A DNA stretch of 41,446 bases from the IMG/VR virus record IMGVR_UViG_3300045592_000084. One strand, 5' to 3'. The notes below the pieces were generated by a model that ran no database searches, had not been told where the DNA came from, and saw nothing but the letters and a program-made list of their open reading frames with translations. Shown here in pieces: positions 2,599 to 19,148 of the stretch (position 1 is its first letter; the number at the start of each line of letters is the position of its first letter). The position numbers and the translations under genes are program-made. The DNA is from a virus.

Positions 2599-3612
2599 TC
2601 AAAGCCATCCTTCCTCAGCCACATTCAAAGCGTCCGCCTGATGAGATCTGGTGAGATCTGCCCCGCTCAGATTCTTCGGCATCAGCTCCATCAGCTGGCG
2701 CTCAGGAGAAAGACAGAACTGCCCGCTCGACTTTTCGTACCAAAGCTTCTGCTTCGCTACCGCACCGGTCTTCCGCTGCTTATCGAGGAGCAGTACCGTG
2801 TCAGGCGCCTGGTCCCACCCGGCGTTTTTTGTCTTCAGCTCAACCGCTTTCTTTTCCTTCGAAAAATTCCGGAAAACAATCACCACGTTATCGGCAAGAT
2901 TGCTGATGTCGGCAGACCCTGAGATGGAGTAGCGGTCAGGAAGCTTTTCTTCGTCATGATCAGCGTTCGCTTTTCTGAGATGCGCTACAAGGTGGACGTG
3001 GACACCAGTCTCAACCGCGATCCGCTTCAGCTGCTCGGTAATGTGGCGCTGAGTCTGAAAGAGCTGATCGCTCGAGTGCCCGCCCGTCAGCATCATGAGG
3101 TTATCAACGAAGACATGCCGGCAGTGTTTGACAGCAGCGGCATAAGCCACTGCGTCAAGGGCATACCCGGGATCGATCGCCCCGCGGTTGCGGTATACCC
3201 AAAGAAGCCGCTCACACCAGTCGAAGAACTTCTCCACCTTTCCGGACTCCCCGATGGAGAGACCGCGGCCGTAAGCCATACGAACCATCTGCATCACGGT
3301 GTCCTTCGGCGCCATCTCGAAGGAGAGAAGGCACACGGCGCGCTTCTTCATCATCATTGAAAGCGCAACCTGGGACATCAAAGCGCTCTTGCCGGCGCCG
3401 TTATTTCCCGCCCACACAGTGAGTTCACCAGGTCTCATCTGAAACCTCGGGATCACAGGACAACTAACCCCGCTGTTCCTAAGAGGATGATCCACCTCTT
3501 CCATAAGTTCAGCCTGCATCGTTGCGGCAAGGACGATATCTGGTGATGGGTCCTTCCCTGACCAAAAGCCTTTCACGTCTTCTGGTTTCAGAAGGAAATT
3601 ACCTGCGTTCAT
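2599..3612 (-). CDS. DnaB-like / RecA-fold replicative helicase (ATPase-domain type)
   Basis: Walker A GNNGAGKS and Walker B HVFVDNLMML, with LVAHLRK and a C-terminal DnaB_C-like layout. Start set at ATG 3610-3612, which is preceded by GGAGGGG. The ORF track extends to 3681. Confidence 0.65.
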   Translation of the reverse strand: MNAGNFLLKPEDVKGFWSGKDPSPDIVLAATMQAELMEEVDHPLRNSGVSCPVIPRFQMRPGELTVWAGNNGAGKSALMSQVALSMMMKKRAVCLLSFEMAPKDTVMQMVRMAYGRGLSIGESGKVEKFFDWCERLLWVYRNRGAIDPGYALDAVAYAAAVKHCRHVFVDNLMMLTGGHSSDQLFQTQRHITEQLKRIAVETGVHVHLVAHLRKANADHDEEKLPDRYSISGSADISNLADNVVIVFRNFSKEKKAVELKTKNAGWDQAPDTVLLLDKQRKTGAVAKQKLWYEKSSGQFCLSPERQLMELMPKNLSGADLTRSHQADALNVAEEGWL

Positions 3613-3964: not shown

Positions 3965-4661
3965 ACAGACGTTCTTCAGCAGTCAGATGCCTCACTTCCC
4001 TTCTTTGTGCTTCTTTCTCTCTCCTTACCCATGTCTGCCAGCTTTGCGTCCAGCCTTTATCTGACCTTCTGGTGGAGGAACCTCTGCCGTTCTCCCAGTA
4101 GAACCTGAAGTCAGTAAAGACTTTCTTAGGATCCAAATCAGGGCGTACGGCTTCGATGTATTCCTTCCAAGCATCCGGGATCTCGGCGAGCGAGAAGAGG
4201 TGTGTCTGTGCCTCCCGCTTCGCCGCAGGCGAGGGGGGAGGTAGGGGCTCTTCCCTGATTTGTTCATTGATATGTTCACTGATCTGTTTGTGTCCCAAAT
4301 TCGGTACTACTGTTTGTCCCGTTTTCGGTACTACTGCCGTACCGTTTTCGGTAGTACCGTTTTCGGTAGTACCGTTTTCGGTAGTACCGTTTTCGGTACG
4401 ACAGAGGGCATAATTAAGCTGGTACCGATTCGCGTTTCTCTCACTTTTTTGAGCTGAAACCACCCCGCTTTGGGAAAGAGCTTTCAGAGCTGAAAAAACT
4501 GTCTTGCGATTCAAGTGCGTAATCGCTGTTAGCTTTTCTACAGACGGGAAGCACCGTCCGGCATCGTCCGAAAACTTCGCCAAGGCAAGAATCACCAGGC
4601 GTTCAGACGAAGAGGTCACGGGCGCCTCCCAAGCAAAATCGGTCGCTTTGTAGCCGTGCAT
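3951..4661 (-). CDS. Replication initiator (lambda O-like role, N-terminal winged helix)
   Basis: 236 aa. The N-terminal segment ERLVILALAKFSDDAGRCFPSVEKLTAITHLNRKTVFSALKALSQSGVV is typical of phage O/DnaD-like initiators. Contains an in-frame iteron array and directly follows the Cro-like gene. Confidence 0.65.
   Translation of the reverse strand: MHGYKATDFAWEAPVTSSSERLVILALAKFSDDAGRCFPSVEKLTAITHLNRKTVFSALKALSQSGVVSAQKSERNANRYQLNYALCRTENGTTENGTTENGTTENGTAVVPKTGQTVVPNLGHKQISEHINEQIREEPLPPPSPAAKREAQTHLFSLAEIPDAWKEYIEAVRPDLDPKKVFTDFRFYWENGRGSSTRRSDKGWTQSWQTWVRREKEAQRREVRHLTAEERLFEEI
4300..4398. repeat. Iteron array, candidate origin of replication
   Basis: Four perfect tandem 15-mers GTACCGTTTTCGGTA (4339-4353, 4354-4368, 4369-4383, 4384-4398), each containing the inverted repeat TACCG-TTTT-CGGTA. 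They are preceded by two copies of TTCGGTACTACTG (4300-4312, 4324-4336). Confidence 0.6.
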
Positions 4662-4985: not shown

Positions 4986-5630
4986 ATGACTAGCTGGAAT
5001 GATCGCCTAAAGCAAGTGATGCAAGAAAAAGGTGTCTTGGCTGCTGATTTAGCCCGAGCTACTGGGCTATCCCCGGCGGGGATAAAGAAATGGTTAGACG
5101 GGGCAACGCTGGCGCCCAGATATGATGACGTCATTAAAACGTGCCGCATCCTTAACGTTTCTCCCGAGTGGCTAATGGACGGGGTCGGAGTCGCCGCTAT
5201 AAAAAATTCCATCAAATTAGACCTGATCGACATAAAAGGCTCATGCGGCACTGGTATAGAGAATTTTGAAGAAATCCCTCAAATCCGCCAGCTTCTTGTT
5301 TCTCCCGAGTGGTTCAGCCGGCATTTTTCATACTTTAAACCGGGAAATATAAAAATCATTTCATCACTGGGCGATTCCATGTCCCCAGACATCGAAGACG
5401 GGGACGCTGTATTTTTAGATACCTCCGATACTTCTCTAATCCGTGATGGAATTTATGCGGTTCTCATTGATTCAGAGCTATTTATAAAGCGAGTGCAACG
5501 GGCTCCGGGGAAACTTATTTTCATAAGCTCTAACCCGGTTTATACGCCGTTTGAAGTCCATTCCGGCGATGGCAGAAATGTCCGTTTTCTTGGGCGAGTG
5601 GTCAAAAGTATGAGGCTTCTTGATCTTTGA
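4986..5630 (+). CDS. CI-type repressor (XRE HTH plus S24 LexA-like autopeptidase)
   Basis: 214 aa. N-terminal HTH (AADLARATGLSPAGIKKW). C-terminal S24 domain with GDSMSP (Ser nucleophile) and FIKRV (Lys). Confidence 0.9.
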   Translation: MTSWNDRLKQVMQEKGVLAADLARATGLSPAGIKKWLDGATLAPRYDDVIKTCRILNVSPEWLMDGVGVAAIKNSIKLDLIDIKGSCGTGIENFEEIPQIRQLLVSPEWFSRHFSYFKPGNIKIISSLGDSMSPDIEDGDAVFLDTSDTSLIRDGIYAVLIDSELFIKRVQRAPGKLIFISSNPVYTPFEVHSGDGRNVRFLGRVVKSMRLLDL

Positions 5631-5659
5631 TGTAAAAAAGATTTTTTTACTTCACCCTT

Positions 5660-5690
5660 AACCTCCTCTGACAAAAGAGGAGGTTTTTGC
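5660..5690 (+). terminator. Intrinsic terminator after the repressor gene
   Basis: Perfect 10-bp stem AACCTCCTCT / AGAGGAGGTT (5660-5669 with 5676-5685), 6-nt loop, followed by a T-run. Confidence 0.8.
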
Positions 5691-5700
5691 GTCTCTGCTA

Positions 5701-5729
5701 TTTACTTTTGAATTAACTTAGGTTAATAT
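5701..5729 (+). promoter_or_regulatory. PL-like early promoter with operator
   Basis: -35 TTTACT (5701-5706), 17-nt spacer, -10 TAATAT (5724-5729). The perfect palindrome TTAACttagGTTAA (5713-5726) overlaps the spacer and -10, the same layout as the PR-like promoter. Confidence 0.5.
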
Positions 5730-5774
5730 ATTTATCAGATAAGAACACTTTGGTGAAATATTCAAGGAGCCCTC

Positions 5775-6017
5775 ATGTGCACCTACCGAATCAGCATCAA
5801 ATCCAATTTCGCAGATATCGAAGGAACCTTCTCACAGGAGGAGCCCTTGACCTTTGCGGACTTTATCCGCCTCACAAGTGATTTCATGCCATCAGGCGAC
5901 GAGATTGATGAATCAGCATTCGAAGCTACGGACAAGGGGGATTGGTTCCACATCTACCGCAAGGTAAAGACTCGTACAGGCGGCGTGGCTACCGCCGAGT
6001 GCGAGCTGATCGATTAA
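5775..6017 (+). CDS. Hypothetical acidic protein, first gene of the early plus-strand operon
   Basis: 80 aa, SD AAGGAG upstream. By hand count about 16 D/E against 8 K/R. Confidence 0.55.
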   Translation: MCTYRISIKSNFADIEGTFSQEEPLTFADFIRLTSDFMPSGDEIDESAFEATDKGDWFHIYRKVKTRTGGVATAECELID

Positions 6018-6029
6018 CAGGAGACAGAC

Positions 6030-6248
6030 ATGGGAAAAGACATGAACAAAGAAAAGCTGGAAATGCTGATCCGCGACACGAAGTTCGCAGTCGAACAAGT
6101 TGGCTACGCGGCACGGTGGTACGCCGACGGAGGTTTCCAGGCTAAAGACTCAGCCACCTACGTGAGAAAGATTTTAGAGGCCGCAAAGCTCGCGGCGCTC
6201 CGGGTTGAGGTTCTTGCCAACGAATTTAAGAAGGAGTGCGAGGAATGA
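6030..6248 (+). CDS. Hypothetical protein
   Basis: 72-aa ORF, 12 nt after the previous gene. Its stop overlaps the next start (ATGA). Confidence 0.5.
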   Translation: MGKDMNKEKLEMLIRDTKFAVEQVGYAARWYADGGFQAKDSATYVRKILEAAKLAALRVEVLANEFKKECEE

Positions 6249-6700
6249 CAGCCGTCAAGCTTGATAAAAACGCCGCCCGGGATATTTGGGCAGCCGAGCT
6301 GAGAAACGGAGCCGAAGCTGCTTACAGGTTCGGCCCCGTAACAGGGAATCTAGTCGCGGTTCTTAAGGAATTACATGAGTCCGTGGATGGCGGCGCTGAC
6401 GACCCGCTCGGCTTCTTCCTCAGTGAGCCCGGTGATAAGCATCTGCCTGAGGCAAAGGAGGTACATAGCGTCGGCTCTGGCCAGATACCCAAGCATAGAC
6501 GGGAGTTTGTTACGTATTGCCTCATTTACCTTCTGTTCAAAGATATCGGCCTGCCCCGGGGGGACCTCTTTGAGGTCACCTTTAACACTATTTTGGAATC
6601 TCTCCTGGTTGAACGCCTGAAGGAATGGAAATCCGATAGCACCGCTCTCAATCCCCGCGATGATGATGTCGGCGGCCTCGTCGGTGGCAAAGGCGTTTGA
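6245..6700 (+). CDS. Hypothetical protein, paralog of 6918..7343; its 3' part is antisense to 6371..6712
   Basis: ATGA coupling at 6245-6248. The N-terminus KLDKNAARDIWAAEL is paralogous to KLTAETARQIWSEWL, with changes that are synonymous in the plus frame. It is uncertain whether the overlapped C-terminal part is functional. Confidence 0.45.
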   Translation: MTAVKLDKNAARDIWAAELRNGAEAAYRFGPVTGNLVAVLKELHESVDGGADDPLGFFLSEPGDKHLPEAKEVHSVGSGQIPKHRREFVTYCLIYLLFKDIGLPRGDLFEVTFNTILESLLVERLKEWKSDSTALNPRDDDVGGLVGGKGV

Positions 6701-6712
6701 TGGCTTATCCAT
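6371..6712 (-). CDS. Hypothetical protein, paralog of 7092..7355
   Basis: 113 aa. SD AGGAGG 6 nt before the ATG. Paralogy is IIAGIESGAIGFPFLQAFN against LLEGIRSGSINFPFLQKFN. Differences between the copies are mostly synonymous in this frame. Confidence 0.7.
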   Translation of the reverse strand: MDKPSNAFATDEAADIIIAGIESGAIGFPFLQAFNQERFQNSVKGDLKEVPPGQADIFEQKVNEAIRNKLPSMLGYLARADAMYLLCLRQMLITGLTEEEAERVVSAAIHGLM

Positions 6713-6808
6713 GAGTTTCCTCCTGTGAGTTGATTTGAATGCGCGGTTACTGGTGGGTACCGCATTCCGATCTTCTCACGGGGGGACCTGAAAAGAAAGA
6801 GGAAGCAA

Positions 6809-6916
6809 ATGAAAGACAACGTCATCTTGGGTACAGCCCTGTTCCTCGCACTCATCGGGGCGGCAACGGTGCTCGGCTGGGTGTACTGGGCAATCTGTGC
6901 AATTGCGGGGGCGTGA
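6809..6916 (+). CDS. 35-aa hydrophobic peptide (single TM)
   Basis: Not in the ORF track because it is under 60 aa. GAGGAAG SD, ATG 6809, sequence MKDNVILGTALFLALIGAATVLGWVYWAICAIAGA, TGA 6914-6916. The stop lies 1 nt before the next ATG (6918). Confidence 0.4.
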   Translation: MKDNVILGTALFLALIGAATVLGWVYWAICAIAGA

Positions 6917-6917
6917 G

Positions 6918-7343
6918 ATGGAAGACAAAAAGTTAACTGCCGAGACGGCCAGGCAGATCTGGTCGGAATGGCTGAAGGCCAGGGCAGGCAAATTTACTCC
7001 TGGAGAACTCATGGATGAGTGCTCAGATTTGCTTGGCCGTTTACAGCAGAGGTTACCGGAAGAATATTCCAGGCAACCTCTTGGAAGTTTTTTAATTCCC
7101 GAGATCCATAGTGAGGGCGTCAATCAGGCTTCGGATATAAATGGCGTCCGCTCTGCCATAGAAGCTCATGGCCTCCGGGATCTTCTGAGACAGAGATCCC
7201 TCAGCAATGCTCATTTTGTTTCTGGCGTAAACGGCTTTGATGATCTTTTCTGCCTCTTCCTCATTGAACTTCTGGAGAAACGGAAAGTTGATCGAGCCGC
7301 TTCTAATGCCCTCAAGAAGGAGCTGGAAAGCCTCTTCTTTTGA
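6918..7343 (+). CDS. Hypothetical protein, paralog of 6245..6700; its 3' part is antisense to 7092..7355
   Basis: ATG 6918 follows the stop of the small peptide (TGAgATG). The N-terminus is paralogous to module 1. The ORF track starts at GTG 6897. Confidence 0.45.
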   Translation: MEDKKLTAETARQIWSEWLKARAGKFTPGELMDECSDLLGRLQQRLPEEYSRQPLGSFLIPEIHSEGVNQASDINGVRSAIEAHGLRDLLRQRSLSNAHFVSGVNGFDDLFCLFLIELLEKRKVDRAASNALKKELESLFF

Positions 7344-7355
7344 AAACTTGGTCAT
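7092..7355 (-). CDS. Hypothetical protein, paralog of 6371..6712
   Basis: 87 aa. SD AGGAGA 6 nt before the ATG. Shares the motifs GxxxSGxIxFPFLQxFN and RADAxY with the first copy. Confidence 0.7.
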   Translation of the reverse strand: MTKFSKEEAFQLLLEGIRSGSINFPFLQKFNEEEAEKIIKAVYARNKMSIAEGSLSQKIPEAMSFYGRADAIYIRSLIDALTMDLGN

Positions 7356-7483
7356 TTCAATTCTCCTAAGGGATGGTTGAGTGATGAGCGTTTACCAGGT
7401 TCGCTCGAACTCAATCATCCCACCTGGGAGAAAAGGAACTCAAATGAACTATGTAACACTGATTTTTAGGAAAGGAGCGTGAG

Positions 7484-8107
7484 ATGGAAGGCACAGCAAA
7501 GGTATACGGCGCGGTGCTGGAAGTCGCCCGCGATCTTGGCAGAGCCGGCATCGGGAAGCGATCCTCTCAAGGGCTGCGGTTCTCATACCGCTCGATTGAA
7601 GATGTGCTGGCGGCTTTAAACCCGCTTCTGTATCAGCACCATCTGATCATCTACCCAGAGCGAATTGACCAGGAGCCGGAGCAGTCCGTCAGCACTCGGG
7701 GCGGCGGTGTGCAGCGCCTTGTCCGGACGACGATTACATACCGTTTCGTAAGCACTGAAGACGGGAGCTCCTTTACCGCGCAGGCGCTCGGAGAAGGGCT
7801 TGACAGCAGCGATAAGGCAAGCGGCAAGGCGATGAGCTACGCGTTTAAGAGCGCGATGTTCCAGACCTTCTGCATCCCGGTTATCGGCATGCCAGACCCT
7901 GACGCCGAACAGGGAACCGAGATAGCCGCGGCGCCGGTCTCGCAAGATTTGCTGGACCGTGCCCGTGACGCCGCTATGAGCGGTCTCGAAGCATACAGAG
8001 CTTTCTTCAAGAGTGTCTCTCAAACTGAGAGAAAGAGCCTCGTCTCGTCAGGCGAGCACGAAAAATTAAAGGCATTTGCTGAAGGAGGAGAAGGAAATGC
8101 AGGCTGA
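7484..8107 (+). CDS. erf: ERF-family single-strand annealing protein
   Basis: 207 aa. FSYRSIEDVLAALNPLLYQHHL and SDKASGKAMSYAFKSAMFQTFCIP match the pattern of P22 Erf-like recombinases. Followed by an exonuclease gene. Confidence 0.7.
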   Translation: MEGTAKVYGAVLEVARDLGRAGIGKRSSQGLRFSYRSIEDVLAALNPLLYQHHLIIYPERIDQEPEQSVSTRGGGVQRLVRTTITYRFVSTEDGSSFTAQALGEGLDSSDKASGKAMSYAFKSAMFQTFCIPVIGMPDPDAEQGTEIAAAPVSQDLLDRARDAAMSGLEAYRAFFKSVSQTERKSLVSSGEHEKLKAFAEGGEGNAG

Positions 8108-8777
8108 ATCACTTAGCCACGGAGACGCAAACCCACTCCAGCGAACTGCGAAGTGGTTCTCAGACCGTTGCGGCTGTCTCACGGCATCCCGCGCGGCTGA
8201 CGCGCTGGCGATATCGGCGAAGACCGGGAAACCGCTCAAATCCAGGCAGGATCTGATTGATACACTGATCGCGGAACGGGCAACCGGAGTTGCGCAGAGT
8301 TCCGGGACGACCTGGGCGATGCAGTGGGGGATTGATCATGAAGCTGAGGCACGCGAGGCGTATGAAGCGGCTACAGGCGAGATGGTGGATCTGGTGGGCT
8401 TCATCCCGCACCCGGATATTCCTTGGTTTGGAGCGTCTCCGGATGGCTTGGTCGGCTCGGATGGGCTTGTAGAAATCAAGTGCCCGCAGACTGTAACCCA
8501 CCTTCGCCGCATAGCGGCTGGGGTCCCAGCGCCAGAGTATCTCCTGCAGATGGACGTGCAGTTAATCTGTACCGGCAGGAAATGGTGCGACTATGTTGAC
8601 TATGACCCGCGGCTTGAGGCAAAGAATCCGGAGCTCACGCTTTTTATCCGGAGATATGAACCCGCCCCCGAACATCTTGCGGGGACGCTTGAGGCTTGTC
8701 GGGTATTCCTCGCGGAGGTCGACAGCCAATATAGGAAGCTCATGAATCTTGGAGAGAGGAGAGAACAAAATGTGTGA
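8097..8777 (+). CDS. YqaJ-like (lambda Exo fold) recombination exonuclease
   Basis: PD-(D/E)xK core ASPDGLVGSDGLVEIKCP. Start at ATG 8097 after GGAGGAGAAGGAA. The ORF track starts at 8076. Confidence 0.8.
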   Translation: MQAESLSHGDANPLQRTAKWFSDRCGCLTASRAADALAISAKTGKPLKSRQDLIDTLIAERATGVAQSSGTTWAMQWGIDHEAEAREAYEAATGEMVDLVGFIPHPDIPWFGASPDGLVGSDGLVEIKCPQTVTHLRRIAAGVPAPEYLLQMDVQLICTGRKWCDYVDYDPRLEAKNPELTLFIRRYEPAPEHLAGTLEACRVFLAEVDSQYRKLMNLGERREQNV

Positions 8778-8976
8778 AGCGAAATTCTCAATTGAAATCG
8801 GAAATGGCAACCCTAAACTGCTGATCCGTGTTGGGGCTTTCAACACACTGCAGGGTGATTACGTGCTGAAAGATAAAGAGACGTGCGAGCGGCTGAAGGC
8901 TCTGATTGATCAGGCGGAGGACTTCTTCCCCTCTGAGGGCAAAGGCCTTAAGGAGAGCGGAAATGCCCGCCAGTAA
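8770..8976 (+). CDS. Hypothetical protein
   Basis: ATG 8770 overlaps the exonuclease stop. 68 aa, no motif recognised. Confidence 0.45.
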   Translation: MCEAKFSIEIGNGNPKLLIRVGAFNTLQGDYVLKDKETCERLKALIDQAEDFFPSEGKGLKESGNARQ

Positions 8977-10157: not shown

Positions 10158-10997
10158 ATGGCACACATGAGTTTAAGGACACCTCTCCGATATCCTGGCG
10201 GGAAGCGAAAATTAGCAAACTTTGTTGAGGCACTAATTTCTCATAACTCCCTTCCCGGGTGCGATTATGCTGAACCATATGCCGGAGGGGCAGGCCTAGC
10301 TATTGAATTGCTTCGTCGCGGAGCCGTTGGGCAGCTTTGGTTAAACGACATTGACAAAGGCATTGCCTCGTTCTGGGGACTCGTCCTCAAACAACCTGAT
10401 TTGTTGTGCAAAATGATCGAAAAAACCGATGTAACTATAGGGGAGTGGAACAAACAAAAGGAACTTGCAAAAAGTGAAGACCCTGTTCTACGTGGCTTTG
10501 CAACATTTTTCCTGAATCGAACCAACCGATCTGGCATCATCAAGGGGGGCGTCATTGGAGGGAAGAGCCAGAGCGGAATCTGGAAGCTTGACTGCAGGTT
10601 CAACAAAGGTGCGCTCATTGATCGTATTCAAGAAATCTCCAAATTCAGTGACCGCATCCATTTCTATAACATGGATGCACTTGAGTTCTTGGTTTCTGCA
10701 GTTCCTCTGCAACTTAAAACTGTTTTGTTCAACCTTGATCCCCCTTACTATGTGAAGGGGGCCGGGCTCTATACCAACTTCTACAGCGATTCGGATCACT
10801 TAAGAGTATCCACTTTCATCAGAGGCGAGTCGCGCCCCTGGATCGTCTCGTACGATAATCATGAGTTCATCAGAAAAATCTATTCTGGCTGCAAGTTTAT
10901 TGAATACGAACTCACTTACACAGCTCAGCGCAAAAGTGTAGGGAAAGAAATAATGTTCTTTGGCAATCTTAGAGAAATCCCTCAAACTGTGAATTAG
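10158..10997 (+). CDS. D12-class (Dam-like) N6-adenine DNA methyltransferase
   Basis: 279 aa. Motifs RYPGGK, EPYAGGAG (AdoMet binding) and NLDPPYY (catalytic DPPY). No adjacent classical restriction endonuclease. Confidence 0.85.
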   Translation: MAHMSLRTPLRYPGGKRKLANFVEALISHNSLPGCDYAEPYAGGAGLAIELLRRGAVGQLWLNDIDKGIASFWGLVLKQPDLLCKMIEKTDVTIGEWNKQKELAKSEDPVLRGFATFFLNRTNRSGIIKGGVIGGKSQSGIWKLDCRFNKGALIDRIQEISKFSDRIHFYNMDALEFLVSAVPLQLKTVLFNLDPPYYVKGAGLYTNFYSDSDHLRVSTFIRGESRPWIVSYDNHEFIRKIYSGCKFIEYELTYTAQRKSVGKEIMFFGNLREIPQTVN

Positions 10998-12661
10998 TTA
11001 CCAATCCTCCTTTTAACCACCGACAAAACTTTTAAGTATTTGTCGGCGAACCCTTTCACTTCTTCAGGGTGAGTGTCAACCCAGGCGGAAATAATATCAG
11101 CTCTATCTTTGGCGCTGATATGCGAAAACCATTTCTTATAAGCATCTCTGCGCTTCTTATCTTCCTTGCCGACTTTGCTTAAGCTTTCTTGCAAACCATT
11201 GATTTCTTTTTGCAAAAAATCCCATGAAATTTTCTTTTTTAGTAAAGTCTCGTGTTCCTTCCCCTTTGGATTGTTAATAGCCTTCATTAGGAAATATTCA
11301 ATTTCTTGTTCCGGGCTGCGAAGCCCACCTGCTTCCGTAGGCAATTTGATGCAATTATCTAATTTTTCAAAACGTTCTGTTTTTTGATCTCCATCTAGCA
11401 CACAGGCAGAATATCTGCTGAAATGTGTAGCTGATTTGTTATGAAACAGCTTTATTAATTCTCCGCATCCCATCTTCAAGGGAACTTTTTTCACGGTAAC
11501 TCTTAAGACCTTTTCGTCGACATGGCCAAACCTTACAATGTTTTTTAAGAAAGCCCCCGCTTCGGAATCCTCAAAATACACAAATAACTCCTTTTTGCGT
11601 TTTTTAGCAAATGCGGTCTTGCTCAGCAGCAATTGATCCAGCATTTCTTGTAGGGTTAAATTTTTTACGCATGGCGTCTTGGTATCCATCAGATAAACAA
11701 TGCCATCAATCGATTGCTTTTTCTGCGAAACGCCGTAAATTTGCTTAAGAAAGACAATCGAATGAGTCGTTACTATAACCTGCAAACTCAACTTCTTCGC
11801 CTCTCTAAGTAACGCCTTCGCTAACGATACTTGCGCTCTAGGATGCAACCCTGCTTCAATTTCATCAACCACAAGAATCCCGCCAGGGTAATCTTGCTTG
11901 AGTTCTCGCTTTAGCCTCCTAAAAGATGCCAGCGCTGTAGCGATAGAAGCCAACGCACCTTGACCAAGAGATATTGTTGACGCGTCGTACTGGTATGTCG
12001 GGTGTTGTGTTCGAAGAACACGTCCTCCAGAAAGGCTCACATCCAGTTCTCTGGCTATCCCATCAGTTACCTCCCCTGGAATAATTTCGTTATGAAACTC
12101 CCGGATAAAATCTGCATCATCCGGGGCCAAAATTGAGCTTGTCACTTCTACTTTGGAGCTTTCTCCGATCGGCCACATTCTCGCTGCACTGACAAAAATC
12201 GTAGGCATTGGGATCTTGCCATCCGGCTTAACGCCCTTCTTGGCCGCGTAATCCTCATTACCTTTAGTACGAGGAACAACTCGATAGCGAGGCTCCTTCG
12301 TCATAGGTGTTTTCGTTTGTCCGATATTGCATACCTTCAGAACCTCTCCCCCATCGACCTCATACGTTAGGCGAATGTAGCCGCTATTTTTCCTCCCAGA
12401 GGTGATATCAGCAGGAGCCAATCGGAACTGCTCTTCAAACTTAGAAATAAATTCCGTCCCAAAATAATTTTTTCTTTTATCAATTTCACGGGCCCGCAAA
12501 CCGCTCGCATTAGCAATAAACCCCAAAATTGAAGATTTCCCTATCCCGTTAAGGCCGGCAATCACAGTCAATCTCGGGAAAATGGGGATTTCCAAGCGGG
12601 AAAGTTTACGCCACGAGTTAGGGTCGAAAGCAACCTTTTTGAGAATAAAACGAGGCTTCAT
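10994..12661 (-). CDS. OLD-family-like ABC-type ATPase with C-terminal Toprim-like domain
   Basis: 555 aa. Walker A GLNGIGKS (K42), signature-like SLGQG (231-235), Walker B ILVVDEIE (D266/E267), TTHS (298-301), then FVYFEDSEAG (E364) and CVLDGDQ (D423, D425). Starts 39 nt downstream of int on the same strand. Confidence 0.75.
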   Translation of the reverse strand: MKPRFILKKVAFDPNSWRKLSRLEIPIFPRLTVIAGLNGIGKSSILGFIANASGLRAREIDKRKNYFGTEFISKFEEQFRLAPADITSGRKNSGYIRLTYEVDGGEVLKVCNIGQTKTPMTKEPRYRVVPRTKGNEDYAAKKGVKPDGKIPMPTIFVSAARMWPIGESSKVEVTSSILAPDDADFIREFHNEIIPGEVTDGIARELDVSLSGGRVLRTQHPTYQYDASTISLGQGALASIATALASFRRLKRELKQDYPGGILVVDEIEAGLHPRAQVSLAKALLREAKKLSLQVIVTTHSIVFLKQIYGVSQKKQSIDGIVYLMDTKTPCVKNLTLQEMLDQLLLSKTAFAKKRKKELFVYFEDSEAGAFLKNIVRFGHVDEKVLRVTVKKVPLKMGCGELIKLFHNKSATHFSRYSACVLDGDQKTERFEKLDNCIKLPTEAGGLRSPEQEIEYFLMKAINNPKGKEHETLLKKKISWDFLQKEINGLQESLSKVGKEDKKRRDAYKKWFSHISAKDRADIISAWVDTHPEEVKGFADKYLKVLSVVKRRIGN

Positions 12662-14520: not shown

Positions 14521-17211
14521 ATGCGTACACAGAATAAAGGTACAAGGTCCTCACGCTTCAGGATAACCACTATAGCTATCGCTGTTGCTTCATCTTTTGC
14601 CATGACTCCGGCTTGGGCTGCTGATACCGCAACGGGGAGCGGTAGCGGTGTCGCTTATGGCACTGGAAGCGACGCGCCTAAGGCTGAAAACGTTGCTATT
14701 GGTCCCAACGCCAAAACAGACAGCACCCACAGTGTGAATACCGGCGAAGCGGGTATCGCTATCGGCGCCAACGCCAAGACCATCACCGAAGTCGGCAGAA
14801 AAGGCGCAGCTGTCGTATTCATGAATCCCGACTTGCCTACTGGGAACTTTGGCGCGGGCGGTATCGCGATCGGTAAAAATTCCATTGGCTACAACGGCTC
14901 AACCGTTCTTGGTCAGCACGATTACACCGGTCAGATCGGCGACGTGAATGTCAATAAGCAGGAAGACGCTTCCAACTCCTATGAAAACCTTCAGTACGGG
15001 TTCGGAGCGACGAGTGTAGGCTATAACTCTTATACCGCTGGTCAGTACGCCACTTCGATCGGTGCCTATAACGTCAATTCCGCCAATTACTATCCGGGCG
15101 GAACAAACAAGGTCAATGGCAATAACACTGTTTTCCAGGGGCTCGGCGCCACGATCATTGGCTCTTTTAACAGCAATGAATCCCGAAGCTCTCAGTCCGC
15201 GTTTTCCGGGATGGCAAACAGCCTTATCGGCATTGCTAACAGAACTCAGAACTCTAATGGCTCTTTGATTTTTGGCGCTGGCAACGAAATTACAAATTCC
15301 TATGCCTCCATTTCTGGACTGCCAAGTTCAACCCCATCTTCAGCAGAAGACTTGCCATCTTCAGCAGAAGACTTGGCCAATACAATACGCGAGTCAGTCA
15401 AAGACTCTGATGGTGGCGGTGCTACCCTCGCAATTGGCGGCGGCAACACTGCCGATTACACCCAAGCCTCACAGCTGATCGGCGTTAACAATACGCTCAA
15501 AGGCACGTCCAGTTCCATAAGCCAATACAACGCGCTGAATGGCTACAAGAACACCGCAACCAACGTTAAGCAGACTTATATCACTGGCTTAGAAAACACC
15601 GTAGATAACAGCCTTCAGGTGAAGGTTTTGGGCGACAACAACACTGGAACCAGCATTAAGAACACCTCCCTGATTGGCACAGGAAATACCGTATCCAGCA
15701 GTCAGAGTGACATTGTGATAGGCGATTATCACACTCTTTCTGGCGGAGGAAATAATGTAATTATTGGCTCTATGGAGACACAGGACCAGCCACAGGCCCA
15801 GCAAGTAACGGAAACTTATAGCGTCACTGCAAATGGTGTTTCCCAGGACATCTCAACAGAGAAAGTTCCGGTCAAAACTCACAAATCTGACATCAGCGAT
15901 ACGGTAATGATTGGCCATAATGCAGACGTCACCGTCAATGGCGGCGTTGCGTTAGGGGCTAATTCTGTTGCCTCTACAGATAAGGGCGTTGCAGGCTACG
16001 ACCTTTCGACCGGAGCGGCATCTACAGAAACTTCAGTTGCTTGGAAATCAACAGCAGCAGCCGTCTCAGTCGGTGATGTTGATCATGAGGTAACGCGGCA
16101 GATTACGGGGGTGGCGGCAGGCTTAAATGATACCGACGCGGTCAACGTTGCACAGCTCAAGAAGGCTGCAGCTGCCGCGACTACGACTGTTGCTACGACT
16201 GATAGCAACCTCACCGTCGCGGAGACTCCCTCAGGCTCCCATAACTACCAGGTTGGACTGAATAAGAAACTCACCGGCATGGAAAGCGCGGAGTTTAGGG
16301 CTGACGCCGCAAAGACGACTATCTCTGCTGGTGGCGTGACCATCGCCAAGGACAGCACAACGGTAAGCCTTAAATCCAATGGACTAGATAATGGCGGGCA
16401 AACCATCAAGAATGTGGCTGCTGGCAAAACCGACACTGATGCGGTTAACCTCTTGCAGCTGAAGAATTCCGTTACGAAGGTGGAATCTGCCAACCAGGAC
16501 TATATCGATATCACAACACGGAAGGAAAATGCCTCAACCAATACCGGGGCAACCATCTACTCCGTGGGACTGTCTGTTGATGCCGAAACCGCGATCACGA
16601 ATGCCAATCATTATCTGACGGCTGATGGGATCAATGCCCAGAACCAAAAGATAACGAATGTTGCCCCCGGAACGATTTCCGCGACGTCTACTGATGCTGT
16701 GAATGGCAGCCAGTTGTATCAGACAAATCAGGCGGTTCAGCAGAATTCTGATGACATTTCCAAACTGTATAACCGCAGCGCGGAACTTAACCGCAAGATC
16801 CATCGTGCCGGCGCGCATGCGGCTGCTCTTGCCGCACTGCATCCGCTGGACTTCGATGAAAATCATCGGGTGTCCGCCTCTCTCGGCCTTGGCCAATACC
16901 ACAGCAGCGGGGCGGCCGCTCTTGGTATCTTCGTCCGCCCGACGGAGAACTTTATGGTCAGCCTGGGAGGATCAATCGCCTCTGGCAGTGATGTGATGGG
17001 GAATCTCGGCGTGCATTATCGCTTTGGCGGCGACAGCGTGCGGGTGAACAAAACGGAACTTACTCAGCAGGTAAGCACTCTCACCGCTGAAAACCGGGAT
17101 CTGTCAGCAAAATTGGCTTCTTCCAACTCAAAGCTGGAAGCCGCTACGTCAAAGATTGACTCTCTGATGGAAAGGATCCACGCTATCGAAGCCAAACTTA
17201 ATATGAAGTAA
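14521..17211 (+). CDS. Trimeric autotransporter adhesin (YadA/Hia type)
   Basis: 896 aa. Signal peptide ending AMTPAWA. Many head repeats (AIGPNAKT, AIGANAKT, AIGKNSIG, ALGANSVAS). Three neck/stalk motifs (TRQITGVAAGLNDTDAVNVAQL, IKNVAAGKTDTDAVNLLQL, ITNVAPG..TDAVNGSQL). YadA-type anchor (AGAHAAALAALHPL ... GNLGVHYRF). Confidence 0.9.
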   Translation: MRTQNKGTRSSRFRITTIAIAVASSFAMTPAWAADTATGSGSGVAYGTGSDAPKAENVAIGPNAKTDSTHSVNTGEAGIAIGANAKTITEVGRKGAAVVFMNPDLPTGNFGAGGIAIGKNSIGYNGSTVLGQHDYTGQIGDVNVNKQEDASNSYENLQYGFGATSVGYNSYTAGQYATSIGAYNVNSANYYPGGTNKVNGNNTVFQGLGATIIGSFNSNESRSSQSAFSGMANSLIGIANRTQNSNGSLIFGAGNEITNSYASISGLPSSTPSSAEDLPSSAEDLANTIRESVKDSDGGGATLAIGGGNTADYTQASQLIGVNNTLKGTSSSISQYNALNGYKNTATNVKQTYITGLENTVDNSLQVKVLGDNNTGTSIKNTSLIGTGNTVSSSQSDIVIGDYHTLSGGGNNVIIGSMETQDQPQAQQVTETYSVTANGVSQDISTEKVPVKTHKSDISDTVMIGHNADVTVNGGVALGANSVASTDKGVAGYDLSTGAASTETSVAWKSTAAAVSVGDVDHEVTRQITGVAAGLNDTDAVNVAQLKKAAAAATTTVATTDSNLTVAETPSGSHNYQVGLNKKLTGMESAEFRADAAKTTISAGGVTIAKDSTTVSLKSNGLDNGGQTIKNVAAGKTDTDAVNLLQLKNSVTKVESANQDYIDITTRKENASTNTGATIYSVGLSVDAETAITNANHYLTADGINAQNQKITNVAPGTISATSTDAVNGSQLYQTNQAVQQNSDDISKLYNRSAELNRKIHRAGAHAAALAALHPLDFDENHRVSASLGLGQYHSSGAAALGIFVRPTENFMVSLGGSIASGSDVMGNLGVHYRFGGDSVRVNKTELTQQVSTLTAENRDLSAKLASSNSKLEAATSKIDSLMERIHAIEAKLNMK
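15334..15375. repeat. Perfect 21-bp tandem duplication inside the adhesin gene
   Basis: ccatcttcagcagaagacttg occurs twice (15334-15354, 15355-15375). It is in frame and encodes PSSAEDL twice. Confidence 0.9.
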
Positions 17212-17426: not shown

Positions 17427-19148
17427 TTGACTACAATTTTTAGTCAACTGAAGTTAGCAGCGGCTGACGGTAAAAAATATACGATGTTACTGCACAAAAG
17501 CAAATTCTGCGCATTATCCAATTCGTTCACTCTCCCACCCACCCTTTTTGTTTATCTGATTGCAGTTACTGGGCTTTTGGTCTTCTCCCTGCTTCTTCCT
17601 GCAGCCATGGGATTCGCCCACGGCAAACCATCAATCGTTGAGGCATGGGACTGGAAAAATATCCTGTTTGTGGTGCTGATTTTCTTTGCCCTCAGTCAGT
17701 ACAGAATCACGCGCTGGTTCGTAGCTATTCCTCTTATTCTGATTTTCGGGCTCTATATGCCGGCAGGTTTGCTTTACGGGAAACCCAGCCTCATCGTTTC
17801 AATAGCCGTTTTGCAGACCAATCCCGCAGAAGCAGGTGAATTTCTCACGAACATCCCTTGGCAGGTTTTCGCGGGCGTCATTGGGCTTTTGGCCAGCGGT
17901 TTTATAGGTGTCTTCTACAGCTCAAAGATCAGAGTTTCAGCAAAAATCATTTTGGGTATCGGCGTGGCGTCTTTCATCATCGGGGAAATGATTTCTTTCG
18001 GAAGCGCCGTAAATTCGAAAGCAATCCAGACGGTTTACTTTTTCCGTCTCCTCAGACCCAGTGTAATTGATGGCTATGCCGCCCTAAAGGAAGAAGAAAG
18101 GCTAGGTACTCCCTCGTGGCAAATCGCTTCCGTCAAGCCTCGATATAAAACCTATGTCGTCATTATTGGTGAAAGCCAACGGCGCGATTACGCATCTGTT
18201 TACGGTTATCCACTAAATACGACTCCGTATTTAAACAGCGCCAACGGCATCTTCTTCTCAAACTTTATTACCGCTGGTGGCAATACTGTTATCTCGCTGC
18301 CAAGGATGCTTTCTTACAACATTCCCGGCTCTGAGCAATACAGCAAAGATGACAACATTGTTACTCTCGCCAATGCCGCTGGCTTTGACACTTGGTGGAT
18401 TTCCAATCAGGGGCGTGGCGGGCCATTCGACAACCCTATTGCTCAGATCGGCATTCGAAGCCACCACACAATCTGGCTGAAGGGCAATTGGGCAGACGAA
18501 AATGTAGATGACGATAATCTGCTACCCAAAATTCAGGAGGTGTTGAAGGTCAAACCGTCAGAAGATAAGCCCAGATTGATCTTTGTCCACCTGATGGGGT
18601 CGCACCCAACTTTCTGTAAACGTCTGTCCGGGCGTCCTGTTGCGTTTAATGTCGGAGACAGTGCGATGAATTGCTATCTGACTACTTACCGCACCTCCGA
18701 CGCCTTCATTAAAAGGACTGTTGATCTTCTGAAAACTGAAGCCGGTAATTCATGGTCACTCTTATATTTTTCTGATCACGGGCTTTCCATGCAAGAGAAA
18801 CTGGGAACCCCTTTGGGCAAAGAGCTCATGCACGGGACCGCTTTTCGTCAGAACTATGAAGTACCTTTTCTGAATATTTCTTCTGACAGCAGAGCTCACG
18901 ATGTCAATCCGGCGTATAGAACAGGATTCCGTTTACTGGAGGGAATGGCCGAATGGATGGGAATCAGTGCCAGCAATATCAATCTTAAGAATAGTCCTGA
19001 TTTCTGGAGCAAAACGAACGACGAAGACATCCATGTCGCAGGCAAACAGCTATACCATCAGCTGGCAAATGACCCCGCTCTGCACTTCAGTTCCCAATTA
19101 TCTCAGAACCACCAACAAAATTTGCCATATCCCACGCCACGCATGTAG
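17427..19148 (+). CDS. Phosphoethanolamine transferase (sulfatase superfamily, EptA/CptA/OpgE-like)
   Basis: 573 aa from TTG 17427 (GGGAGG 7 nt upstream), or 554 aa from ATG 17484. Several N-terminal TM helices, then motifs YVVIIGESQRRDYASVYGY, FVHLMGSHP and YFSDHG. Confidence 0.8.
   Translation: MTTIFSQLKLAAADGKKYTMLLHKSKFCALSNSFTLPPTLFVYLIAVTGLLVFSLLLPAAMGFAHGKPSIVEAWDWKNILFVVLIFFALSQYRITRWFVAIPLILIFGLYMPAGLLYGKPSLIVSIAVLQTNPAEAGEFLTNIPWQVFAGVIGLLASGFIGVFYSSKIRVSAKIILGIGVASFIIGEMISFGSAVNSKAIQTVYFFRLLRPSVIDGYAALKEEERLGTPSWQIASVKPRYKTYVVIIGESQRRDYASVYGYPLNTTPYLNSANGIFFSNFITAGGNTVISLPRMLSYNIPGSEQYSKDDNIVTLANAAGFDTWWISNQGRGGPFDNPIAQIGIRSHHTIWLKGNWADENVDDDNLLPKIQEVLKVKPSEDKPRLIFVHLMGSHPTFCKRLSGRPVAFNVGDSAMNCYLTTYRTSDAFIKRTVDLLKTEAGNSWSLLYFSDHGLSMQEKLGTPLGKELMHGTAFRQNYEVPFLNISSDSRAHDVNPAYRTGFRLLEGMAEWMGISASNINLKNSPDFWSKTNDEDIHVAGKQLYHQLANDPALHFSSQLSQNHQQNLPYPTPRM

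Follow-up and report, generated by a model that had tools for sequence, protein, structure and literature searches.

We analysed a 41,446-nucleotide (nt) stretch of viral DNA, IMG/VR record IMGVR_UViG_3300045592_000084, which is referred to below, at its full length, as the window, and which by its gene content is a temperate-phage genome or prophage. Between the CI-like repressor gene and the ERF/YqaJ recombination genes of the window, where the flanking genes all lie on the plus strand, there are two modules, and in each of them a minus-strand gene lies antisense to the 3′ part of a plus-strand gene, with a hairpin next to the pair. Comparison of these modules with their relatives indicates that each is a genuine, long-conserved antisense dual-coding cassette, composed of a plus early gene, a minus gene and a hairpin, in which the two genes would probably be expressed alternately.

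The two modules and their protein families

The elements of the two modules are listed here by position in the window (aa, amino acids; bit scores are those of covariance model R1, described below).

6245..6700, plus strand: plus gene 1, 151 aa, whose ATG overlaps the stop codon of an upstream 72-aa gene (ATGA)
6371..6712, minus strand: minus gene 1, 113 aa, inside plus gene 1 save for its first four codons, with AGGAGG as ribosome-binding sequence
6401..6418, plus strand: DPLGFF motif, residues 53-58 of plus protein 1, antisense to the segment EEEAERV of the minus protein
6718..6786, plus strand: hairpin 1, an imperfect inverted repeat 17 nt after the stop codon of plus gene 1 (57.1 bits)
6918..7343, plus strand: plus gene 2, 141 aa, whose ATG lies 1 nt after the stop codon of a 35-aa gene
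7092..7355, minus strand: minus gene 2, 87 aa, paralogous to minus gene 1 and shorter at the C-terminus, with AGGAGA as ribosome-binding sequence
7361..7430, plus strand: hairpin 2, with the position and architecture of hairpin 1, 17 nt after the stop codon of plus gene 2 (58.5 bits)

The open reading frame (ORF) coordinates given in the initial annotation of this DNA proved exact for all four genes, and so did its antisense overlaps of 330 nt in module 1 and 252 nt in module 2, over which the plus frame stays open. Codons 1-42 of plus gene 1 (6245..6370) are free of overlap and codons 43-151 are antisense to minus gene 1; in plus gene 2 the first 58 codons are free and the rest lies antisense to minus gene 2. 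Codons of the two frames lie exactly opposite one another, with plus codon position 1 facing minus codon position 3, and hence a plus stop codon is always the complement of a minus TTA, CTA or TCA. Both genes of a pair have start signals of their own, which are a Shine–Dalgarno (SD) sequence and ATG for the minus gene, and an SD sequence or stop-start coupling for the plus gene. As had been described, AGGAGG and AGGAGA each stand 6 nt before the minus ATG, and the plus genes of the window are joined to the preceding genes by ATGA at 6245-6248 and TGAgATG at 6914-6920. In relatives, the plus ATG has a good SD sequence or stop-start coupling as well, and it lies 10-20 codons before a conserved AA-DIW motif.

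The locus had been regarded at first as a duplicated module. Two paralogous copies are indeed present: minus proteins 1 and 2 match each other by BLASTP (E = 3e-14, about 31-32% identity), and the paralogy of the plus N-termini, for which the pairwise match is weak (E = 0.07), is confirmed by the family alignment. A recent duplication is not what we see, and modules 1 and 2 are mutually as diverged as any two family members. When 6608..6667 is aligned with 7263..7322, the six single-base differences that had been pointed out (GGG/GGC, GGT/GGC, CCA/CCG, TTC/TTT, CTT/CTC and AAC/AAT) all fall at minus third positions, where they leave the minus protein unchanged; read in the plus frame, each alters the amino acid.

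An exhaustive profile search with the minus family recovered 33 diverged cluster representatives, which are about 85-120 aa long apart from a few fragments, some N-terminally extended calls and one spurious large protein, while word-indexed searches returned only a handful of close relatives. The large protein, P0026 (1765 aa), is a repetitive coiled surface protein, and its match to the minus profile was treated as spurious. The family is characterized by the motifs F..EEA.QIIIAGI.SGAI.FPF and LAR.DALYLL.L...L..GLTEEEA.RI. With the family alignment as input, AlphaFold2 predicted an all-helical minus protein with confidence (predicted local distance difference test score, pLDDT, 92.1; predicted template modelling score, pTM, 0.73). 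Foldseek searches of this model against PDB and BFVD gave nothing below E = 4, and neither the minus nor the plus protein matched a family in Pfam, PHROGs, NCBIfam or PADLOC; a Csx16 match (E = 0.0056, one member of 30) was dismissed as noise, and so was a match to Nore1-SARAH, which lay below the family cut-off. At the nucleotide level, 5700..7500 had no match among GenBank phages in distant-mode BLAST, and tblastn with minus protein 1 had none there either. Megablast of the region against complete E. coli genomes gave no match, no relative emerged from a genome scan with the window protein, and viral scans were likewise empty.

For pairs of less than 50% identity, nucleotide identity at minus codon positions 1-3 was 0.64/0.76/0.39 in the N-terminal block and 0.59/0.77/0.48 in the C-terminal block. 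Variability is thus highest at minus position 3, and therefore the minus frame is the dominant constraint in the overlap. When the plus protein was kept fixed and synonymous codons were shuffled within the gene, minus identity dropped from 0.53 to 0.29 (z = 31). Purifying selection on the minus frame, which had been proposed from the six differences above, is borne out by both measures, and the sequences and the structure model together indicate that the minus gene encodes a helical protein which folds well and is held under strong purifying selection over its entire length. A type I toxin-antitoxin system of the hok/sok kind, in which a non-coding antisense RNA accompanies a small hydrophobic toxin, was ruled out in view of these properties: at ~110 aa the minus product is soluble and helical, its antisense partner is protein-coding, and there is no Rfam match.

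It is extremely improbable that the minus ORF is an artefact, i.e. the shadow of a real 150-aa plus gene. The loci were mostly retrieved via the minus protein, so that an intact minus frame partly follows from the retrieval itself, and some annotations call the plus ORF instead. Such a shadow would, however, not be expected to have a confident fold (pLDDT 92), the observed minus position-3 variability or a shuffle z of 31. Moreover, three loci retrieved via the plus protein (L037, L038a and L042) have an intact minus gene with SD sequence and ATG, and minus homologues have survived at loci with a broken plus frame.

The plus protein has a part outside the minus ORF, 42-65 codons long among relatives and with conserved motifs. 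In the conserved columns of this N-terminus, nucleotide identity at plus codon positions 1-3 is 0.59/0.70/0.35, which is a plus-frame coding signature. A profile of the plus translations matched 21 database proteins or clusters of 143-182 aa, and the existence of these entries means that gene callers sometimes choose the plus frame. The AlphaFold2 model of the plus protein has a pLDDT of 43 overall, about 55-58 for the helices at residues 8-46 and <50 for most of the tail. On comparative grounds, the plus ORFs are real early-operon genes, and the selected part of their product is an N-terminal segment of ~65 residues, consisting of two predicted helices with the AA-DIW motif and then DPLGFF.

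Selection on the two frames of the overlap

To describe the overlap we used 14 diverged cassettes, namely the two modules of the window and those of loci L001, L009, L018, L019, L021, L023, L026, L028, L029, L032, L033 and L042, among which pairwise minus-protein identity is 21-69%. Thirteen of these cassettes are unbiased for the plus frame because they were found via the minus protein, and L042 was found via the plus protein. In 14/14 cassettes the codon-aligned antisense frame is without a stop across the whole minus gene. The sole TTA, CTA or TCA codons occur among the first few minus codons, where they serve as the plus stop (TCA or TTA); minus gene 2 of the window, for example, is without an antisense stop after codon 5, and the frame of L026 is also open despite a 30-residue N-terminal extension of its minus protein. 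Plus-frame stops inside the overlap, which the initial annotation had named as the mark of a mere shadow frame, were thus looked for in relatives and found in 0/14 cassettes.

Past the plus-stop codon, antisense stops occur at 0/148 Leu and 0/85 Ser codons (0/233 together), and about 28 are expected from the long ORFs of the same loci, where the share of TTA/CTA among Leu codons is 10.6% and that of TCA among Ser codons 14.2%. The chance of an open frame is 0.06-0.23 per gene, and the joint chance is about 1e-13 for all 14 cassettes and about 1.5e-8 for nine lineages that are mutually <50% identical, values which take the lineages as independent. At AT-richer loci TTA/CTA make up as much as 38% (L023, P = 0.001) or 21% (L029, P = 0.019) of Leu codons, yet the frames are open. 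TCA accounts for 15/17 Ser codons up to the last antisense stop and 0/85 after it, a contrast that is partly built in, the boundary being set by that stop. Over the same genes, the other two antisense frames contain 44 and 153 stops, compared with 1 in the codon-aligned frame, and the CI repressor genes of the same loci, used as controls, have 2-16 aligned antisense stops each. On these comparisons the openness of the plus frame is selected.

These counts bear directly on the proposal that the plus extension merely reflects a scarcity of TTA, CTA and TCA codons, so that only the minus gene would be real in the overlap. The aligned antisense frame is the one that is oftenest open by chance, with a probability of about 0.09-0.23 per gene when codon usage is pooled, and gene callers usually pick the minus ORF, both of which would agree with such a shadow. 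We nevertheless hold it to be highly improbable, given that all 14 diverged cassettes are open, including the loci with 21% and 38% TTA/CTA among Leu codons, that the CI controls have 2-16 stops each and that a solo minus homologue (L043, see below) does have TTA codons, and given further that DPLGFF is kept through changes that are non-synonymous in the minus frame.

To measure amino-acid constraint on the plus frame, the minus protein was kept fixed, and plus identity was then 0.352 compared with 0.292 under the null (z = 8). Nearly all of this excess comes from the C-terminal block (z = 8.5), with z = 1.9 in the N-terminal block. For the CI control family the antisense z was -1.2 and position-3 identity 0.295; the control alignment included one ERF sequence, which leaves the stop counts unaffected and only adds noise to the control z. 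Frame-specific selection, which had been suggested as the proper measure for this locus, thus appears in synonymous-codon shuffles for both frames, at z = 31 for the minus and z = 8 for the plus frame. Column by column, the plus excess resides in DPLGFF, a few adjoining columns and a DD pair near the plus C-terminus, and plus amino-acid constraint was detected only in the N-terminus, the first ~20 overlapped codons and this DD pair.

The codons of the DPLGFF block were compared in distant pairs, in which identity is 83-100% for the plus residues F, F, G, L and D and 68% for P, and 28-85% for the minus residues on the same codons. At the two Phe columns the minus E/K residues vary, and A is the last base of 25/25 Glu/Lys codons, so that the plus strand reads TTC or TTT (P about 8e-8). 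The Gly column has A, T or S on the minus side, encoded by NCC in 13/13 cases (P about 1.5e-8). Opposite the Leu column the minus protein has E, K, Q or D, and the plus codon is CTC, CTT, CTG or TTG. Such substitutions alter the minus protein without changing the plus protein, and therefore a translated plus frame is favoured over an RNA element.

An RNA or DNA element within the overlap, for instance a minus terminator or a binding site, could in principle account for conservation at minus-synonymous sites. The conserved block lies near the minus 3′ end, a possible place for a terminator, and there is a weak terminator-like match at 6395..6412 on the plus strand. We judge this explanation very unlikely: plus third positions are free (CTC/CTT/CTG/TTG, GGC/GGT/GGA, TTC/TTT) with the plus residues fixed, the frame is continuous with an N-terminus that bears a coding signature, and the absence of stops over a further 80 codons would be left unexplained. 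By the substitution patterns of both frames, then, the overlap is dual-coding DNA in which each strand encodes a protein, and of the readings offered by the initial annotation, that of genuine antisense-overlapping gene pairs is supported, with selection at the protein level in both frames.

The hairpin and natural variants of the cassette

By folding, a hairpin of ~70 nt is present in 14/14 cassettes, and its base lies 8-27 nt 3′ of the plus stop. One arm of the hairpin is the complement of the minus SD site; in hairpin 1 it is the 5′ arm, with CCTCCT on the plus strand. As the hairpin contains the minus SD site, the structure in the minus mRNA would sequester it. The hairpin is stabler in the plus sense (summed -514 vs -417 kcal/mol; 58 vs 13 G-U pairs). 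When the alignment was trimmed to the hairpin, RNAalifold found 18 pairs, 10/18 of them with compensatory double changes, whereas it found no pairs in an ATG-anchored MAFFT alignment of the leaders, in which the 3′ arms were misaligned. Paired cells amount to 85.5%, compared with 76% in shuffles (0/500 reach the observed value) and 40-58% when partners were slid.

A covariance model of the hairpin, R1, has exactly two matches in the 41-kb window, one per module. In relatives, copies also precede unrelated reverse genes: at 8571..8639 in L007, before a 104-aa gene; at 4029..4098 in L038, before a 129-aa gene (L038-L040); and, weakly, at 3541..3596 in L023, before a 146-aa gene. The hairpin therefore looks like a portable leader or boundary element that the reverse-strand genes of this hot spot share. 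A scan of 5600..7600 against Rfam 15 gave sub-threshold chance matches only. None of them covers 6718..6786, and 7361..7430 is touched by a single one, to Pseudomonas sRNA P1 (minus strand), with 13.8 bits vs a gathering score of 100. An integron attC-like site was considered and rejected, since no integron integrase lies nearby, there is no R/L box consensus, and the G-U asymmetry fits RNA equally.

Several relatives have lost one partner and serve as natural controls. L043, a solo chromosomal homologue outside cassettes, has two TTA codons in its minus gene, no plus N-terminus and a degraded hairpin. In the L023/L034 lineage (P0010, 77 contigs) the plus N-terminus is present, with TGA where L029 has TGG, and the minus gene is intact. 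In L038-L041 (P0054, 13 contigs), on the other hand, a 143-aa plus gene 2 is intact, and other genes stand in place of the 5′ end, SD sequence and ATG of minus gene 2. The near-identical phage L007 (CI 98% identical) carries another reverse gene (8647..8961, 104 aa) at the position of module 1. This gene is at best a very distant relative of the minus family (hhalign probability 26%), has five antisense stops and is without a plus gene. These variants indicate, by comparison of the loci, that either partner can be lost singly and that antisense stops appear once the plus gene is absent.

The TGA of L023 lies at about 3391..3393 on the minus strand of that locus, and the next 128 codons are stop-free though 38% of local Leu codons are TTA/CTA; it may be a recent nonsense mutation, or else it is passed by read-through or reinitiation.

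Relatives carry module 1, module 2 or both, and modules are also swapped or partly replaced. Recombinant cassettes were seen in L003 (P0002), P0038, P0042, P0047 and P0051, in which the plus and minus genes are chimeras of the window, L001 and L009 types; the crossovers map to the overlap, in the vicinity of the DPLGFF block, whose nucleotide sequence is conserved. The stretch from repressor to ERF in relatives (1800..4100 in L038-L041; L007; 1929..2624 in L039) is a mosaic hot spot for reverse-strand cargo, which includes 160-aa, 129-aa and 104-aa genes and a 231-aa DUF3800 protein.

Proposed alternating expression, known systems and genomic context

In the model that we favour, a cassette consists of a plus early-operon gene, a minus gene of ~90-140 codons lying in the 3′ two-thirds of the plus gene, and a hairpin of ~70 nt. 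Judging from the layout and from lambdoid biology, a repressor-proximal early-left promoter would drive the plus gene on induction and during lytic growth. The minus gene faces the operon and needs a promoter of its own, and hence it is most plausibly expressed when the operon is off; with this promoter and its leader it would be expressed in the lysogen, while the operon is repressed. Transcription and translation would converge on the shared DNA, and the two products would then exclude each other in time. An open plus frame as far as the hairpin would serve to keep ribosomes on that part of the early mRNA which is the complement of the minus mRNA. The layout is also compatible with a possibility that the initial annotation had listed separately, namely that early transcription silences a minus gene expressed in the lysogen, and such silencing would form part of this model. 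A functional, disordered plus tail is also possible.

Strict co-occurrence in phage cassettes suggests a functional link between the plus and minus genes; the minus gene was seen without a working plus partner in L043, which lies outside a cassette, and in the L023 lineage with its premature plus stop. As the most speculative step of the model, the plus protein would counteract the lysogen-expressed minus protein, as in sieB/esc.

Several observations weigh against the alternating-expression model, beside the assumed independence of lineages mentioned above. A promoter and terminator scan stayed at background level, and no minus promoter or terminator could be assigned by it. For the remaining ~80 plus codons the frame is kept open and no amino-acid constraint was detected; the plus tail, which has a pLDDT <50 and is unconstrained, may be translated without a function of its own. 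The greater stability of the hairpin in the plus sense means that its main role may be on the early mRNA and not in the control of minus translation. In L007 the operon evidently tolerates ~420 nt of untranslated antisense, and a general anti-polarity explanation of the open frame is weakened by this arrangement. Finally, the idea of an antagonist is highly speculative, being drawn by analogy.

Some of these points lead to a narrower version of the same explanation, not an alternative to dual coding, in which only the first ~65 plus residues are functional and the tail is open solely so that ribosomes reach the hairpin. Such a translated spacer would prevent Rho-dependent polarity, RNase III attack on the sense/antisense duplex, or misfolding. 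It would account for the lack of excess plus conservation between DPLGFF and the DD pair, for the tail pLDDT <50 and for a plus stop that is fixed 8-27 nt upstream of the hairpin. However, the near-identical phage L007 tolerates ~420 nt of untranslated antisense at the same place, and disordered tails can function without sequence conservation. We consider the spacer a real possibility, though we would not expect it to be the correct account.

A further extension of the dual-coding model is that the cassette is an obligately co-inherited opposed pair, the minus protein being a factor expressed in the lysogen, for instance in exclusion or defence, and the plus protein an early antidote or switch, with the hairpin and convergent transcription and translation enforcing an either/or choice. 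We put this forward as a rather unlikely extension. If it were true, the cassette would represent a new architecture of phage self-immunity, and it would be among the oldest demonstrable antisense dual-coding loci in prokaryotic viruses.

Antisense overlapping genes in bacteria are mostly confined to narrow taxa. Reported cases have been reviewed (PMC7457138). In Pseudomonas aeruginosa, antisense pairs are called evolutionarily novel by their authors (PMC8850804), and the candidates in E. coli O157:H7 are based mainly on expression data from a single strain (PMC9927249). Like the E. coli and P. aeruginosa pairs, the present cassette has a coding ORF antisense to a coding gene, for which the evidence consists of open frames and purifying selection. 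Unlike them, it is kept across relatives at 21-69% protein identity, with each start outside the overlap, and it has a structured RNA element, forms an exchangeable phage unit and is known here from sequence alone.

The asp gene of HIV-1, antisense to env, is similar in that a long stop-free antisense frame lies over a conserved gene and stop depletion serves as evidence, and it differs in that it belongs to a eukaryotic retrovirus and is an ORF confined to particular lineages (PMC8622228; bioRxiv 10.64898/2026.09.03.749113). In contrast with asp, the cassette has a conserved plus motif and an N-terminal domain that is not overlapped. In sieB-esc of P22 and lambda, a self-protection product is specified from within an exclusion gene. 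The cassette would resemble this system, as proposed here, in having opposed products on the same early-left DNA of a temperate phage that are inherited together; Esc, however, arises from an in-frame internal start on the same strand, and the likeness is one of logic only.

In coliphage 186 the convergent lytic and lysogenic promoters pR and pL are subject to transcriptional interference, and lambda has the antisense RNA oop opposite cII. With both systems the cassette would share face-to-face transcription in a temperate phage that leads to mutually exclusive programmes. In 186 and oop/cII, however, the overlap is short or the antisense partner non-coding, whereas in the cassette a whole gene is dual-coding. 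The overprinted genes of phiX174 (cited in PMC7457138) are similar in that phage DNA encodes two proteins in different frames; those overlaps are same-strand, whereas the cassette is antisense with codons exactly opposite. No description of the family, the hairpin or the arrangement was found, and no protein, structure or RNA library names them.

The comparative evidence indicates that the antisense dual-coding pair is old, extends across the family, is borne on a cassette and has a structured RNA associated with it; it falls into a category that is known but contested and has few bacterial examples. For an old antisense overlap it is unusually well supported, with evolutionary evidence from 14 lineages, silent substitutions in both directions and natural single-loss controls. 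The locus is also genetically tractable, as both starts lie outside the overlap and many stop mutations are silent in one frame. Gene callers report one gene per locus, and hence such pairs will be systematically under-annotated in viral metagenomes.

The remaining features of the window to which the text refers are the following.

1.8-4.7 kb, minus strand: replication genes, encoding SSB, a DnaB-like helicase and a DnaD/HTH_36 protein
4986..5630, plus strand: CI-like repressor with HTH and S24 domains
6030..6248, plus strand: 72-aa gene, adjoining plus gene 1 upstream
6809..6916, plus strand: gene of a 35-aa hydrophobic peptide, MKDNVILGTALFLALIGAATVLGWVYWAICAIAGA, between modules 1 and 2
3′ of the repressor, plus strand: early-left operon with ERF (7484..8107), YqaJ-like exonuclease and D12 methyltransferase
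after the early-left operon, minus strand: AAA_21/AAA_15 ATPase, then integrase
minus strand: structural genes, with the large terminase last

The 35-aa peptide is nearly identical in L001, L003-L007 and L040, and its gene always lies 3′ of hairpin 1 or the cassette. From its distribution it appears to be a conserved neighbour, a role in the cassette mechanism being so far unsupported.

A homologue of the minus family occurs in a Sutterella metagenome-assembled genome (L043), and among the cluster members one bears the label Collinsella tanakaei. Two window genes located between integrase and structural genes encode a YadA-type trimeric autotransporter adhesin (14521..17211, plus strand) and a sulfatase-family protein (17427..19148, plus strand), and they are lysogenic-conversion cargo or else part of the host flank. 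The adhesin speaks for a Gram-negative host, in agreement with the Sutterella match, and on these sequence affinities a host, taken here to be a gut bacterium, can be assigned only weakly.

The D12 adenine methyltransferase gene (10158..10997, plus strand) converges on the gene of a 555-aa AAA_21/AAA_15/SMC_N ATPase (10994..12661, minus strand), which the integrase gene adjoins. Local GC content falls to 0.41 at this pair, and a convergent methyltransferase/ATPase pair also flanks the cassette region in L023; the two genes may be defence-type cargo.

At the upstream border of module 1, the 72-aa gene (6030..6248) and a 70-aa gene of L007 (8958..9170) encode proteins with a common N-terminus, M.KDMNKEKLEMLI, and the remainder of the two proteins differs, which marks a further mosaic junction at the border of the cassette.

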